From: Naegleria gruberi
Lineage: Eukaryota
Length of the DNA: 64,000 nt
Reading direction: 5' to 3' (one strand)
Assembly (NCBI GenBank): GCA_000004985.1
Contig: GG738893.1
Shown here in pieces: positions 31,588-37,681 of this stretch. The number at the start of each line of letters is the position of its first letter. Position 1 is the stretch's first letter. The translations under genes were made by a program, and so were the position numbers. The notes under the pieces are model-generated. The model saw nothing but the letters and a program-made list of their open reading frames with translations. It was not told where the DNA came from and ran no database searches.

Positions 31588-34080
<2,493 letters not shown>

Positions 34081-34427: not shown

Positions 34428-35543
34428 TTACTTCTTATAGGTATCAACTTTCTTTGGTGGTTGATAAACATCAACTTTGGAACAAACTCTTTCCTTCTTT
34501 GCGCAAATACTCTTATCAGCATGCTTTCTACAGACCTTCTTTCCACCAACAAAGTTATACTTGGCACAGACCTTATAACCTTTAGATTTCTTAACACAAA
34601 TCTTCTTATGAGATCTCTTGATACATCTTGCCTTCAAAGTCTTGTATTGAGTACAATATGGCTTGGCAGCATAATCACAACAGAACTTATCTTCTCTGAA
34701 TGCCTTACAAACTCTAACCTTTTCTTTGAGATCACAGAATTTGCTTGGAGTCCACTTGGTACAGAACTTGGCCTTTTCCTTCTTGATACAGAATTTGTTT
34801 CTAACAAATTTAACACACTTCTTTTCGTAACCAATCTTTTTGGCGAATTTGACATTTTCATATCTGGTACAGGTCTTTCTCTTGGCATAGGCAACACAAA
34901 TGGTGTGATATTTCTTTTCCAAAATTTGCTTATAATAATGGTCAATCCAACCCTTATAATGTTTCTTACTAACTGGAACCCATTTTTGAACAGTTCTTGA
35001 GAGTTTCTTATACTTGGCACAATAGGAATGAACAGAATACTTGGCACATCTCTTCTTATGATAATACTTAATCTTTGGAACGTAGGTTTCTTCAACACAT
35101 CTAGCCGAATGTCCATACTTTTTACAAATGAAATGATAAGCATACTCATCACATGCATTATTCTTTCCGTGATGTTTACACAATTCCTTCCATTCATACT
35201 TGGCACACATCTTGTGTTTAGTTACTTTAGTACAGAATTGTTTGTAACCATGACCCAAACAAATCTTTTCATTCTTACTATACTTATCACACTTGTGAAG
35301 TTTCTTATATTCTAAACATTTACCCTTTCCAACAAGTTTCCAATCGCAGCATTCCTTCTTGGTACCAATCCATTCATAATCAACGCATTTACCTTGAATA
35401 GTTTTGTAATGAGTACACTTATTGTAACAATATTGTTGATGATCAGCGTAGGTATCAGTTGGCTTGTTACCCATGACAACAATGGCGGAGAGAGCAAGCA
35501 AAGTCAATCCGAGAAGGATTGGTTTGAGAATAGACTGTTTCAT
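34428..35543 (-). CDS. Secreted Lys/Cys/Tyr-rich tandem-repeat protein (371 aa)
   Basis: Minus ORF from the track. It has an N-terminal signal peptide MKQSILKPILLGLTLLALSAIVVMG. Then come about 25 degenerate repeats with an 11-14 aa period of the form C-x-K-Y-x4-6-C (CAKYEWKELCKHHGKNNACDEY..., CAKYSVHSYCAKYKKL...). It is about 17% Lys and about 13% Cys. Confidence 0.55.
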   Translation of the reverse strand: MKQSILKPILLGLTLLALSAIVVMGNKPTDTYADHQQYCYNKCTHYKTIQGKCVDYEWIGTKKECCDWKLVGKGKCLEYKKLHKCDKYSKNEKICLGHGYKQFCTKVTKHKMCAKYEWKELCKHHGKNNACDEYAYHFICKKYGHSARCVEETYVPKIKYYHKKRCAKYSVHSYCAKYKKLSRTVQKWVPVSKKHYKGWIDHYYKQILEKKYHTICVAYAKRKTCTRYENVKFAKKIGYEKKCVKFVRNKFCIKKEKAKFCTKWTPSKFCDLKEKVRVCKAFREDKFCCDYAAKPYCTQYKTLKARCIKRSHKKICVKKSKGYKVCAKYNFVGGKKVCRKHADKSICAKKERVCSKVDVYQPPKKVDTYKK

Positions 35544-35799: not shown

Positions 35800-35966
35800 A
35801 TTTGGTTTCTAATGAGATGTTATTGTAATAAGAAATGTTTCGAGTAATTACATCTCATTAGAAACCAAATACATTATCTAATGAGATGTTATTACTCTTA
35901 TTGTAATAAATACTCGAATGAGATGTTATTACAATAAGAGTAATAAGAAATGTTTCGAATGATTGT
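35800..35966. repeat. Nested inverted/direct repeat block in the divergent promoter between the genes starting at 35543 (-) and 35987 (+)
   Basis: A perfect 21-bp inverted repeat, atttggtttctaatgagatgt (35800..35820) and acatctcattagaaaccaaat (35850..35870), flanks a 29-nt spacer. There are three direct copies of (c/t)(t/g)aatgagatgttatt at about 35808, 35878 and 35916. The segment ttattactcttattgtaataa (about 35889..35909) recurs inverted as ttattacaataagagtaataa (about 35927..35947). gtaataagaaatgtttcga occurs twice (about 35825 and 35942). Confidence 0.6.
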
Positions 35967-35986: not shown

Positions 35987-37681
35987 ATGGAATCACCACT
36001 AAAGAAGAAGAAATTACATCATCACAATGATGAAGAAAATATTCAAATAATGAATGAACAAGATGATGAAAATGTTAAAATAATATTATCAGATTCTTTA
36101 TACGAAAGTAAACTATTCTCCAATTTACAAAATCAATTCGGAGGAAGAAAATTTAAAGAAATCCAATCCGAACACACATATATTGATCACATTCGCTTCA
36201 CACACGATGTTAAATGTATTCGAACTTGTCCAAAGAAGAAAAATTTACTCCTTCTCCACTATTCTAAAGAACTTTCCATTTATGATTTGGAAAGCAAACA
36301 AGAAATTAGAAACATTCACTTTAAAACAAGTGAAGATTTTGAAATTGATGATCAGGGAGATTTCATCTATTACATTACTAAAGAAGATTATTTAACAAAA
36401 TCTTCCTTATTAGACGAAAGAAGTAAATTAAACACAATTTGGGAAGAGAAGATTAATTATCAAACTTTTATATTTTGTGAATCAAAGAATGAAATTTATG
36501 TAATTGATCATTTTAATACTGAATTTGTAATGATTCATGTATTGGATGTATCAAATGGGGAATTAATTAGGGAAATTGTCTTTCCTATTATGAATTTGAT
36601 TACTGAATGTGATGGTGGACATTTAACTCATGAAATTAATCAATTTTACTATGATGAAAATGGAGGAAGATTCTATCTAGCTTTTGAATCAGTTCTAGTT
36701 GATGATGAAGATTCAGACGATAAAACTATTCATTCTCTTTATGTATTTGAAGAAAAGATTGGTAAAACTAGTAAGATTCATATTAATTATTTAATTTCAA
36801 TGATTGGAATTTTACAAGAGAACTATTTCTTTTGTTTAGATGAATGTAGAAATGTGCATATTTATTCAAAGAATACAAATGAATTGAAAAATTCATTTAC
36901 AATGAATAGTACTGCTCAATGTATTTATTTTGACATGTCAACCAATAGATTATTCCACAAAACAACAAGATGTATTGAAATATTTCAATTAAATATTATA
37001 ACAAAGAATGAGAGTTTTCCAATTAACAGAGAAATGTGTCAAGCTATCAAGAGATTGGGAGGCGAATTTCCACAATATCTTTCACAACATCATCAAGTAC
37101 CAAACACTGTAAATTTCTTGAGGAATATTAATTTCAGAAATACGATTTTGAAATTTGTTGACAATGAAATTAAGGAACATTTCAGTTTAAAAGAATTACT
37201 ATGTAATTCCAATATAGATAATGTGCCATGGGGATATTTAAAACAGCAAAAGTGTTGGTTATTTGTGATTTTTGAGGAGGTTTCGAATATCAATGACTTT
37301 CCAATTTACCTTTGCTCTAGTAAGGATCGACAAATACTGTCAAGAACATACACATTTTCAGAATTTCTCTCTAAATGTACACCAGTTGAACAAGTTTCAG
37401 TTTTAGAACAGGAATATCTCATTGATTTTCATAGTATCTATCAAAATTTATTACAAAAAGGTATCATTCATCCACAAACACGTAAAATCGACCCTAACAT
37501 TCTATTAGCCAAGTATAGAGAAATGGTTTGTAAAAATATTCACATAATCGAGTTGAGAAATCATTTTCAATACTCAACCATTAAATTGGAAAATACTGAA
37601 TATACAAAGATGGATTTAATTGTGGCAGCTGAACGAATTTACTCTGATGCAACAATACCACAATCATTTATTATTGAATAA
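35987..37681 (+). CDS. Hypothetical protein (564 aa)
   Basis: ORF from the track with the ATG at 35987. It has an N-terminal poly-K/H stretch, MESPLKKKKLHHHNDEEN. No assignable domain. Confidence 0.5.
   Translation: MESPLKKKKLHHHNDEENIQIMNEQDDENVKIILSDSLYESKLFSNLQNQFGGRKFKEIQSEHTYIDHIRFTHDVKCIRTCPKKKNLLLLHYSKELSIYDLESKQEIRNIHFKTSEDFEIDDQGDFIYYITKEDYLTKSSLLDERSKLNTIWEEKINYQTFIFCESKNEIYVIDHFNTEFVMIHVLDVSNGELIREIVFPIMNLITECDGGHLTHEINQFYYDENGGRFYLAFESVLVDDEDSDDKTIHSLYVFEEKIGKTSKIHINYLISMIGILQENYFFCLDECRNVHIYSKNTNELKNSFTMNSTAQCIYFDMSTNRLFHKTTRCIEIFQLNIITKNESFPINREMCQAIKRLGGEFPQYLSQHHQVPNTVNFLRNINFRNTILKFVDNEIKEHFSLKELLCNSNIDNVPWGYLKQQKCWLFVIFEEVSNINDFPIYLCSSKDRQILSRTYTFSEFLSKCTPVEQVSVLEQEYLIDFHSIYQNLLQKGIIHPQTRKIDPNILLAKYREMVCKNIHIIELRNHFQYSTIKLENTEYTKMDLIVAAERIYSDATIPQSFIIE

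Follow-up and report, generated by a model that had tools for sequence, protein, structure and literature searches.

Results

On the minus strand of the window, the 64,000-nucleotide stretch of Naegleria gruberi contig GG738893.1 analysed here, a program-made ORF list places an ATG-to-stop ORF of 371 aa at positions 34428-35543. It is a complete intron-less CDS of 371 codons plus a stop codon at 34428-34430, and its translation (P0015) is 100% identical to N. gruberi NAEGRDRAFT_71888 (XP_002673141.1; UniProt D2VSC2), whose existing annotation reads "predicted protein" and nothing more. The ORF described at this locus in an earlier note is thus real, its coordinates being exact and the RefSeq model identical. 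Comparison with the closest homologous gene (on L002; 84% identical) yielded a dN/dS of 0.095, and NAEGRDRAFT_71888 is a real gene under constraint. The AAG fraction of its Lys codons is 0.69, compared with 0.76 for the neighbouring CDC48 gene and lower values for most other ORFs of the window, and this codon use suggests good expression.

The protein starts with a predicted signal peptide (residues 1-25, MKQSILKPILLGLTLLALSAIVVMG; 35469..35543, minus strand), in which a basic MKQSILK start is followed by a hydrophobic core at residues 9-23. The best 15-residue Kyte-Doolittle mean is 2.79 in this segment and at most 0.15 elsewhere in the protein; the scan revealed no second hydrophobic segment beyond the signal peptide, and the C terminus is hydrophilic. 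The tripeptide V-M-G occupies positions -3 to -1 of the predicted cleavage site, where cleavage after G25 is a rule-of-thumb prediction. All full-length homologues carry an equivalent segment, and residues 6-23 form the lone helix in the AlphaFold models. These data bear out the signal peptide that had been claimed from the DNA letters, and the claimed secretion of the protein fits this conserved, predicted feature. The mature form would comprise 346 residues (~41 kDa) with free termini.

NAEGRDRAFT_71888 contains 22.4% Lys (83 residues), 8.6% Cys (32), 8.6% Tyr (32), 4.3% His and 2.2% Pro, while the thirteen other long ORFs in the window average 8.2% Lys, 1.6% Cys, 3.3% Tyr and 2.3% His. The bias towards these four residues had been recognised before, but the figures then given (about 17% Lys and about 13% Cys) have to be replaced by the ones above. 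The net charge computed from the sequence is ~+65, and binding of polyanions is therefore plausible.

A Pfam scan at E <= 10 returned only a sub-threshold match to DUF3624, and no Cys-rich Pfam family was found in seven further sequences, consisting of six relatives and one doubtful profile match (P0031). No sequence of the PDB matched the family profile at E <= 1, and the PDB fold search found no relative, its only and weak matches being the long β-hairpin stems of pore-forming toxins. All three kinds of search were thus in agreement with the previous remark that the pattern was not recognisable as any named Cys-rich family. In particular, neither an EGF-family match (a 6-Cys module, C-x-C-x5-G-x2-C and related forms) nor a Granulin (PF00396) match was obtained with Pfam at E <= 10. 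Neither the target nor the seven further sequences matched a Pfam model for wall lectins, including the 6- or 8-Cys chitin-binding domains known as Jacob/peritrophin type (CBM14). There are no CxC motifs, no CxxC motifs and only two CC pairs in NAEGRDRAFT_71888.

Sixteen of the 31 Cys-Cys intervals are exactly 9 residues long, and 22 measure 8-10 residues. When the mature sequence was shuffled 100,000 times, an interval of 9 occurred 1.3 times on average (maximum 8) and intervals of 8-10 occurred 4.0 times (maximum 14), so the periodic Cys spacing reported earlier is far above chance; the string quoted as its example, CAKYEWKELCKHHGKNNACDEYAYHFICKKYGHSARC, was found at residues 113-149. About 25 copies of a C-x-KY-x(4-6)-C repeat had been postulated. 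A degenerate Cys repeat does exist, but this pattern does not describe it, since the strict form C-x-K-Y-x(4-6)-C occurs only 4 times, along with 6 occurrences of C-x-K-Y and 18 of C-x-x-[YFW]. What repeats is in fact a degenerate nonapeptide, C-x-K-[YFHW]-x-K-x-K-[FILV], of which there are ~22-30 copies. Tandem Repeats Finder detected no DNA-level tandem repeat in the gene, indicating that the nonapeptide repeats are old and diverged.

The cysteines of NAEGRDRAFT_71888 are arranged with mirror symmetry. For 30 of the 32, a partner lies at position 392-i within ±1 (i + j ≈ 392), whereas 3000 trials with the intervals put in random order yielded 19-20 such residues on average and never more than 28. 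Read from the tip outward, the intervals in the N-arm (residues 39-175; 35019..35429, minus strand), which holds 16 Cys mostly 9 residues apart, are 9, 17, 9, 9, 9, 9, 9, 9, 10, 9, 10, 1, 12, 10 and 4. Those in the C-arm (residues 216-354; 34482..34898, minus strand), whose 16 Cys mirror the N-arm, are 9, 18, 9, 9, 9, 9, 9, 1, 8, 10, 9, 10, 12, 9 and 7. Between the arms lies the putative hairpin tip (residues 176-215; 34899..35018, minus strand), a 41-residue Cys-free interval. Profile-profile comparison detected similarity between the two arms with a probability of 94%. Tandem duplication was considered as the origin of the symmetry and rejected, because the interval order is mirrored rather than translated. 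The symmetry is the main feature of NAEGRDRAFT_71888 and was missed by the earlier note.

Each of two AlphaFold runs (mean pLDDT, 63 and 70) produced one giant β-hairpin with its tip at residues 195-199, at moderate confidence (pTM 0.26; mean pLDDT of the five models, 35 to 70). The β-strands span residues 38-59, 62-71, 76-88, 92-125 and 133-194 in the N-arm and residues 200-263, 270-303, 307-319, 323-332 and 335-355 in the C-arm. The strand breaks are mirrored as well, falling at 60-61/333-334, 72-75/320-322, 89-91/304-306 and 126-132/264-269.

NAEGRDRAFT_71888 belongs to an uncharacterised Naegleria/Willaertia family, with which it shares full-length homology, a framework of ~30 Cys, the signal peptide and Φ-D-x-Y end motifs. 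Its identity to the members from N. gruberi, N. fowleri and N. lovaniensis ranges from 49 to 89% (E values of 1e-92 to 1e-222). An exhaustive profile search retrieved only 21 proteins; all traceable ones come from Naegleria, Willaertia or environmental samples, and no apicomplexan protein is named among them. The profile matches P0031, P0035 and P0036 were rejected as relatives, being other period-9 Cys arrays or translated minisatellites that match in periodicity only. The earlier note had advised a look for paralogues elsewhere in the genome, and these exist: N. gruberi has at least seven dispersed family genes in four subfamilies, including 71888, 74241, 64508, 48501, 66117, 67458 and 76199, and tblastn with the protein found no second copy in the 64-kb window. 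N. fowleri possesses two clear orthologues, FDP41_003065 and FDP41_004030. The family is small, dispersed and multigene, and it is stable across Naegleria and Willaertia.

In a wider alignment of 15 sequences, 30 of the 32 Cys recur in almost every member. C66 and C289 differ from one subfamily to another, and a few Cys are missing from subfamily D, which is shorter. Changes in the Cys framework tend to come in mirrored sets. The Cys at positions 160 and 234 are present in exactly the same 6 of the 15 sequences, and Cys at 182/184/186 accompany Cys at 208/212, with the environmental sequences P0021 and P0022 matching in part only. In the tip region, mirrored Cys pairs have been gained in subfamilies B and C, whereas subfamily D has lost the tip and, together, C175 and C216. 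Subfamily C carries insertions in both of the mirrored intervals 140-149 and 243-252. Only about four independent events in evolution underlie these co-varying changes. The mirror symmetry itself and the mirrored changes in intervals, insertions and Cys gain or loss across subfamilies are new in this analysis. Furthermore, the repeats are mutually diverged but conserved position by position across species, which argues for one full-length folded unit. A polyprotein of peptides was rejected for the same reason, since the repeats are not homogenised and yet each is conserved between orthologues.

The ends of the two arms are marked by a further motif. The pattern [VITP]-D-x-Y was counted 4 times, where 0.18 would be expected, and its sites are the mature N terminus, the tip and the C-terminal tail. 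The first one (TDTY, residues 29-32) lies in the N-terminal tail (residues 26-38; 35430..35468, minus strand) and is conserved in subfamilies A-D. The tip carries an invariant W-x-D-x-Y (IDHY, residues 200-203), of which D201 and Y203 are invariant in subfamily A1. The C-terminal tail (residues 355-371, SKVDVYQPPKKVDTYKK; 34431..34481, minus strand) consists of two K-V-D-x-Y-(K/Q)-P-P units, as identified by motif scan and paralogue alignment, and the Tyr/Lys/Pro unit KVD[TV]Y[KQ]PP is restricted to this segment. Its copy number varies from 1 to 4 in the paralogues: four VDTY units were counted in NAEGRDRAFT_74241 and four I-D-x-Y units in N. fowleri FDP41_004030 (IDTY followed by three IDSY).

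Discussion

The mirror symmetry of the cysteines suggests an antiparallel disulfide ladder. In the architecture that we propose, the two halves of the protein would pair antiparallel to form a single two-stranded β-ribbon of great length, held together by ~15 cross-strand disulfide rungs at intervals of 9 residues. Near the tip the rungs would be C175-C216, C166-C225, C149-C243, C140-C252, C131-C261, C122-C270 and C113-C279, and the remaining ones would be C104-C288, C95-C297, C85-C307, C76-C316, C65/66-C326, C53-C338, C43-C347 and C39-C354. One or two spare Cys would sit beside a rung, in NAEGRDRAFT_71888 one of C65/C66 and one of C288/C289. If the ribbon were straight, the rod would be ~45 nm long, with the N- and C-terminal tails at its open end and the tip loop at the opposite end. 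We infer these disulfide pairs and the rod shape from the mirror pattern, the co-variation and the AlphaFold hairpin, and we regard the ladder architecture as probable. The symmetry is equally compatible with an antiparallel domain-swapped dimer or polymer as with an intramolecular hairpin.

Cystine-ladder hairpins are known from θ-defensins (RTD-1), tachyplesin and protegrin, which are cationic and secreted and consist of two antiparallel β-strands with parallel cross-strand disulfide rungs. Peptides of the θ-defensin/tachyplesin type are antimicrobial and have 17-21 residues with 2-3 rungs spaced 2-4 residues apart; in θ-defensins, the backbone is cyclised. In NAEGRDRAFT_71888, the Cys mirror symmetry, the co-varying changes and the AlphaFold hairpins support a putative strand and disulfide arrangement of this type. 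By contrast, its arms measure ~140-160 residues with ~15 proposed rungs 9 residues apart, its mature chain of 346 residues has free termini, and there is no sequence relationship. The protein might be a giant β-hairpin antimicrobial peptide, that is, a cationic effector that this bacterivorous amoeba would deliver to phagosomes or release, and that would bind bacteria and permeabilise their anionic envelopes. A signal peptide, a net charge of ~+65, many aromatic residues and the proposed ladder hairpin itself would all suit such an effector, as would the weak structural matches to pore-forming toxin stems, and the numerous KK/KR pairs could be processing sites. However, the toxin matches have TM-scores of <= 0.12 and reflect merely a long hairpin, and the arms present no amphipathic or hydrophobic face (Kyte-Doolittle maximum of 0.15 outside the signal peptide). 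The diverged but position-wise conserved repeats speak for one folded unit instead. Moreover, diversifying evolution is common in immune effectors, whereas the low dN/dS and the fixed Cys spacing across the genus give no sign of it. We consider an antimicrobial function unlikely.

Rungs that follow each other every 9 residues along a regular antiparallel ribbon fall in turn on hydrogen-bonded and non-hydrogen-bonded sites, and only the latter readily accept disulfides; the ladder would therefore need bulges or kinks. By structural reasoning, an odd number of residues from rung to rung does not easily suit a flat ladder of antiparallel strands. The C-x8-C array could alternatively fold into consecutive small disulfide loops, or into a β-solenoid with an 18-residue coil and one internal disulfide per coil, in which the 9-residue period would place two Cys opposite each other. 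Another topology of this sort would also be in line with the moderate AlphaFold confidence and with the non-Cys residues, whose cross-strand charge and hydrophobic complementarity showed no excess at the proposed register over shifted registers. Yet neither form accounts for the mirrored irregular intervals around residue 196 or for the Cys gains, losses and insertions that co-occur at i and ~392-i, and the hairpin appeared in both AlphaFold runs, so that we judge these topologies quite unlikely. In the Tenebrio molitor antifreeze protein, a β-solenoid is built from 12-residue coils (TCTxSxxCxxAx) that repeat by translation, and the disulfides lie within the coils. That protein resembles NAEGRDRAFT_71888 in its very short repeats with periodic Cys and in being a disulfide-rigidified all-β rod, as proposed here for the latter; however, the period is 9 in NAEGRDRAFT_71888 and its Cys pattern is mirrored, which favours a hairpin over a solenoid. 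A disulfide-ladder axis in an all-β molecule, again proposed here, likewise recalls granulin, a small secreted module of stacked β-hairpins with an axial disulfide ladder. The granulin signature has 12 Cys with four CC pairs in ~55 residues, which differs from the two CC pairs and the negative Pfam result for NAEGRDRAFT_71888.

As to function, we propose that NAEGRDRAFT_71888 is secreted and strongly cationic and would be a structural unit of an extracellular matrix, the cyst wall being the likeliest one. The Lys and aromatic faces of the rod would bind anionic or glycan wall material, and the end tyrosines together with the spare Cys would cross-link rods to one another. An extracellular structural role had already been put forward in the earlier note, in the form of a cyst- or cell-wall matrix protein or an adhesive, and it is still the best guess at function; we put it at about an even chance, while the cyst wall as its specific location is our guess by analogy, possible but doubtful. 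The explanation taken as a whole, namely a secreted cationic ladder rod that would act as a cross-linkable wall component, is tentative and falls somewhat short of even. Regular Cys spacing is already known from multigene families of wall proteins. The apicomplexan proteins COWP1-9, TgOWP and EnOWP form a secreted, small multigene family of wall proteins, some of them His-rich, whose conserved and regularly spaced Cys are thought to form disulfides that stabilise the resistant wall, according to one account (PMC4514997). The Naegleria family, also small, multigene, predicted to be secreted and endowed with regularly spaced Cys, resembles them in kind only. COWP repeats are 6-Cys units of type I and type II, whereas NAEGRDRAFT_71888 repeats a 9-mer that contains a single Cys; Pfam, profile and PDB sequence searches revealed no homology, and the part of that account covered here makes no mention of a mirror-ladder arrangement for COWPs. 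Furthermore, the wall location of COWPs has been demonstrated (PMC4514997), while a wall role for NAEGRDRAFT_71888 is argued by analogy.

The literature searched contained no expression, proteomic or localisation data on the family and no match to its gene identifiers, nor did it contain a proteome, transcriptome or protein localisation of the Naegleria cyst wall. Family members had no match in the supplements covered from an N. fowleri cyst RNA-seq study, an N. fowleri co-culture study, an N. gruberi copper proteome and an N. gruberi differentiation RNA-seq study; these negatives are weak evidence, two of the tables having been covered in part.

An extracellular protein rich in Lys, Tyr and His could also be an adhesive or a surface coat of trophozoites or flagellates, a mussel-foot-like Lys/Tyr (possibly DOPA) glue for substrate or prey. 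The C-terminal tandem units with Y-K-P-P and the codon use suggestive of good expression are in keeping with that idea. Plant extensins and proline-rich wall proteins (PPVYK, SPPPP-Y-K) and mussel Mfp-1 (AKPSYPPTYK) employ Tyr for oxidative cross-linking, and the tail shares with them short tandem Tyr/Lys/Pro units, variable copy number and a reminiscent composition. It differs from both in that K-V-D-T-Y-K-P-P has an invariant Asp two residues before Tyr, and from extensins in that such units are confined to short end-pieces of a Pro-poor protein whose body lacks SPPPP/PPVYK repeats. The tail motif makes up merely 17 of the 371 residues, and the body is predicted to be held rigid by its Cys framework, which would set it apart from adhesive proteins that are disordered. 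A trophozoite proteome table of N. gruberi did not list the protein in the part searched; as evidence this is weak. Altogether, an adhesive function appears decidedly improbable. Metal binding had been suggested as well. A metal-binding or storage protein, either metallothionein-like or a Cys/His-rich chelator, is highly improbable: Cys and His are abundant, but metallothioneins are cytosolic and aromatic-poor with dense CxC, CxxC and CC clusters, whereas NAEGRDRAFT_71888 has a signal peptide, 8.6% Tyr, neither CxC nor CxxC and cysteines that behave as co-evolving disulfide partners, and the copper study of N. gruberi did not list it among the copper-responsive proteins in the portion of its table that was searched.

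If the ladder topology holds true, NAEGRDRAFT_71888 would be, to our knowledge, by far the longest cystine-ladder hairpin, and a natural rigid polycationic nano-rod of this sort would be of interest for structural biology and biomaterials. The most far-reaching version of our proposal is that the family represents a class of fold not described before, namely cystine-ladder β-ribbons of 40-45 nm (either hairpins or arm-swapped covalent polymers), and would be the main cyst-wall protein of Naegleria and Willaertia, whose rods would be joined at their ends by the Φ-D-x-Y tyrosines and the spare Cys; we think this fairly unlikely. Should the wall idea prove wrong, NAEGRDRAFT_71888 and its relatives would simply form a secreted orphan family, restricted to one lineage and unusual in architecture. 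Naegleria, to which the brain-eating N. fowleri also belongs, has the cyst as its resistant stage, and the family supplies concrete candidate genes for Naegleria cyst-wall proteins.

Gene, product, and genomic surroundings

The ORF lies where the earlier note had placed it, at 34428–35543 on the minus strand, running from ATG to TAA over 371 codons, and the peptide quoted there was found at residues 113–149. Its translation is identical to Naegleria gruberi NAEGRDRAFT_71888 (XP_002673141.1, EFC40397.1, UniProt D2VSC2), which is annotated only as "predicted protein"; the sequence is public, yet uncharacterised. The product is richer in lysine and poorer in cysteine than the ~17% and ~13% first estimated, with 22.4% Lys (83 residues) and 8.6% Cys (32), along with 8.6% Tyr (32) and 4.3% His, versus averages of 8.2, 1.6, 3.3, and 2.3% for the 13 other long ORFs of the window. 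The N terminus does have the anatomy of the proposed signal peptide: residues 9–23 form the sole hydrophobic segment, which is kept by homologues, and V-M-G precedes the predicted cut. The mature protein (~41 kDa) carries 93 Lys and Arg residues versus 29 Asp and Glu, giving a net charge near +65; its C terminus is hydrophilic, and no N-x-S/T sequon occurs in the target.

The surroundings are as expected for Naegleria: the GC content of the window is about 32%, and the target region is gene dense, with long uninterrupted ORFs. An intron-less CDC48/p97 AAA+ ATPase gene (31612–34080, plus strand; CDC48_N, CDC48_2, and two AAA domains) lies tail-to-tail with the target, about 350 bp separating the stop codons. 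Short direct repeats and inverted repeats are densely nested (35800–35965; arms of 21–31 nt, 81–100% complementary; units such as TCTAATGAGATGTTATT and GTAATAAGAAATGTTTCGA) in the intergenic region upstream of both the target and a divergent plus-strand ORF (35987–37681); they could act as a promoter element or constitute a small foldback element. The divergent ORF encodes 564 aa, otherwise uncharacterised, and its sole Pfam match, the COPA/B second β-propeller, is sub-threshold (23.6 bits versus a cut-off of 57).

A nonapeptide repeat outside the named Cys-rich families

The cysteine periodicity proved sharper than described: of 31 intervals between successive cysteines, 16 measure exactly 9 residues and 22 fall within 8–10; shuffling the mature sequence 100,000 times yielded means of 1.3 (maximum, 8) and 4.0 (maximum, 14), respectively. 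The C-x-K-Y-x(4-6)-C repeat suggested earlier survives as a periodic array and fails as a strict pattern, which occurs only four times. The repeating unit spans nine residues and is degenerate, C-x-K-[YFHW]-x-K-x-K-[FILV], and the lack of any DNA-level tandem repeat in the target gene indicates that the repeats are ancient.

As the earlier note had it, no named Cys-rich family was matched: Pfam at an E value of ≤10 returned only a sub-threshold DUF3624, seven further sequences matched no Cys-rich Pfam family, and a family profile search of the PDB (E ≤ 1) found no relatives. Granulin, EGF, chitin-binding, and metallothionein-type memberships were rejected by the Pfam scan and by Cys-motif counts. 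A giant, unrelated-looking environmental protein (P0031; 2,774 aa, on a 30-kb ENA metagenome contig) is built in part of long arrays in which a different Cys repeat, also of period 9, recurs (CSSFITSST/CFDYATLAA, an 18-residue super-unit). It scored an E value of 1e-11 against the family profile, apparently by periodicity alone, and may be an independent example of the C-x8-C architecture.

A small, dispersed family, with the target under purifying selection

Word-indexed and exhaustive profile searches recovered few relatives, and all named ones are from Naegleria or Willaertia. The N. gruberi members (NAEGRDRAFT_ numbers) fall into subfamilies A (71888 and 74241), B (64508 and 48501), C (66117), and the shorter D (67458 and 76199); the others are FDP41_003065 and FDP41_004030 of N. 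fowleri, C9374_000273, C9374_012983/013759, and C9374_009239 of N. lovaniensis, ABK040_005866 of Willaertia magna, and a handful of environmental sequences. Paralogous arrays had been a point to check; the N. gruberi members lie on contigs of seven different lengths and are therefore dispersed, and no second copy of the target lies within the window. The closest available gene, on a metagenome contig (L002), shares 84% nucleotide identity (dS 0.69, dN 0.065), and its flanks bear no similarity to the window. The resulting dN/dS is 0.095. The target is therefore a genuine gene that evolves under strong purifying selection and has true paralogues.

Mirror-symmetric cysteines and a predicted disulfide ladder

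The 32 cysteines are split 16 and 16 by a 41-residue Cys-free stretch between C175 and C216. Counted outward from this stretch, the intervals are 9,17,9,9,9,9,9,9,10,9,10,1,12,10,4 in the N-terminal arm and 9,18,9,9,9,9,9,1,8,10,9,10,12,9,7 in the C-terminal arm. When one extra Cys per arm (the two CC doublets) is left out, the irregular intervals agree in mirrored order: 17 with 18, then 10,9,10 with 10,9,10, and then 12–13 with 12. A partner at position 392 − i (±1) was found for 30 of the 32 cysteines, versus a mean of 19–20 and a maximum of 28 in 3,000 trials with the interval order shuffled, either across the entire protein or arm by arm. Tandem duplication was rejected as the source, since it would leave translational rather than mirror symmetry. 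The arms are also alike in the ordinary direction (hhalign probability, 94%), and both are made of one common nonapeptide.

Mirrored positions also change together, in what amounts to few, about four, independent events. Cysteines at positions 160 and 234 have an identical distribution (six of 15 aligned sequences); in subfamilies B and C, extra cysteines at 182/184/186 accompany those at 208/212, matched only in part in the environmental P0021 and P0022; C175 and C216 are lost jointly in subfamily D; and the Pro/Tyr-rich insertions of subfamily C occupy mirror-partner intervals (140–149 and 243–252).

Two AlphaFold2 runs (8 and 11 sequences; mean pLDDT, 63 and 70) both gave one giant β-hairpin turning at 195–199, with a pTM of 0.26 and a wide spread among five models. 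Its strand breaks are mirrored: 60–61/333–334, 72–75/320–322, 89–91/304–306, and 126–132/264–269. From the cysteine pattern and these models, we consider it probable that the target is a ladder, that is, an antiparallel two-stranded ribbon with about 15 cross-strand disulfide rungs, one per nine residues. The 136 residues from C39 to C175 would, in extended form, span roughly 45 nm. The mirror symmetry is equally well accounted for by arm swapping into an antiparallel dimer or polymer, and a different disulfide topology seems unlikely. Charge complementarity and hydrophobic pairing between facing residues did not exceed those in shifted registers. In an ideal ribbon, a 9-residue step makes hydrogen-bonded and non-hydrogen-bonded sites alternate, and a ladder would therefore need bulges or kinks. 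With 32 mature cysteines, subfamily A would form 15 rungs and leave two spare (one of C65/C66 and one of C288/C289), while the odd counts of B (35) and C (37) mean that at least one Cys is unpairable within the chain.

The motif [VITP]-D-x-Y is strongly enriched in the target (4 sites versus 0.18 expected) and similarly in every Naegleria member. It occurs as TDTY directly after the signal peptide (residues 29–32), as IDHY at the hairpin tip (200–203; D201 and Y203 invariant), and in two K-V-D-x-Y-(K/Q)-P-P units of the C-terminal tail; NAEGRDRAFT_74241 has four such tail units, FDP41_004030 has four I-D-x-Y units (IDTY and then three IDSY), and the mirrored insertions of subfamily C are likewise filled with the motif. 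If the target is a hairpin as modeled, these sites would mark both rod ends.

In P0021, a distant relative (L001 3001–5142, an ENA metagenome contig; 713 aa), the ladder domain comes after a different N-terminal domain, Cys/Pro-rich and ~350 residues long, is far less basic, with Thr, Ser, Gln, and Glu in place of Lys, and lacks the motif; the Cys framework must therefore predate the lysine richness. In the NAEGRDRAFT_76199 model (P0028), the C-terminal half of a ladder protein is fused with SAM and PB1 domains, which are cytosolic; annotation has probably merged two genes here. In two ENA/NCBI relatives (P0009 and P0010), nonsense directly follows the conserved L-C-L-G-H-G, and NAEGRDRAFT_48501 (P0011) lacks the G-Y-K-Q that comes next, which suggests that subfamily B genes have an intron there, read through or mis-spliced by gene callers. 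The window gene has no intron at this point.

Proposed function

We propose that the target is a secreted structural rod of the extracellular matrix, with the cyst wall as the leading candidate site. Lysines and aromatic residues on its surface would provide binding sites for anionic or glycan material, and rods would be cross-linked through the tyrosines at their ends and the spare cysteines. We put the chance of an extracellular structural role at about even; placement in the cyst wall specifically, by analogy, is tentative. The rod was chosen because the protein is secreted and disulfide rich, the framework is extremely conserved and slow-evolving, with no sign of diversifying selection, the multigene family is small and stable, the Tyr/Lys/Pro end pieces differ in copy number, and the choice of Lys codons is close to that in the neighbouring, highly expressed CDC48 gene. 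Regular Cys spacing is also shared with COWP/OWP, cyst and oocyst wall protein families of other protists, for which a wall location is shown (PMC4514997). Among the rival readings, a giant cationic antimicrobial hairpin appears improbable, an adhesive or surface coat rather more so, and metal binding very improbable. The literature searched yielded no mention of family members by gene identifier and no inventory of Naegleria cyst-wall proteins.

Secreted β-hairpins stapled by disulfides are a known kind, as are wall proteins with periodic cysteines; the target differs from them by scale and regularity, not by kind. A whole-protein hairpin of about 15 rungs at 9-residue spacing would be, to our knowledge, unprecedented, and the structural prediction is both sharp and cheap to test.
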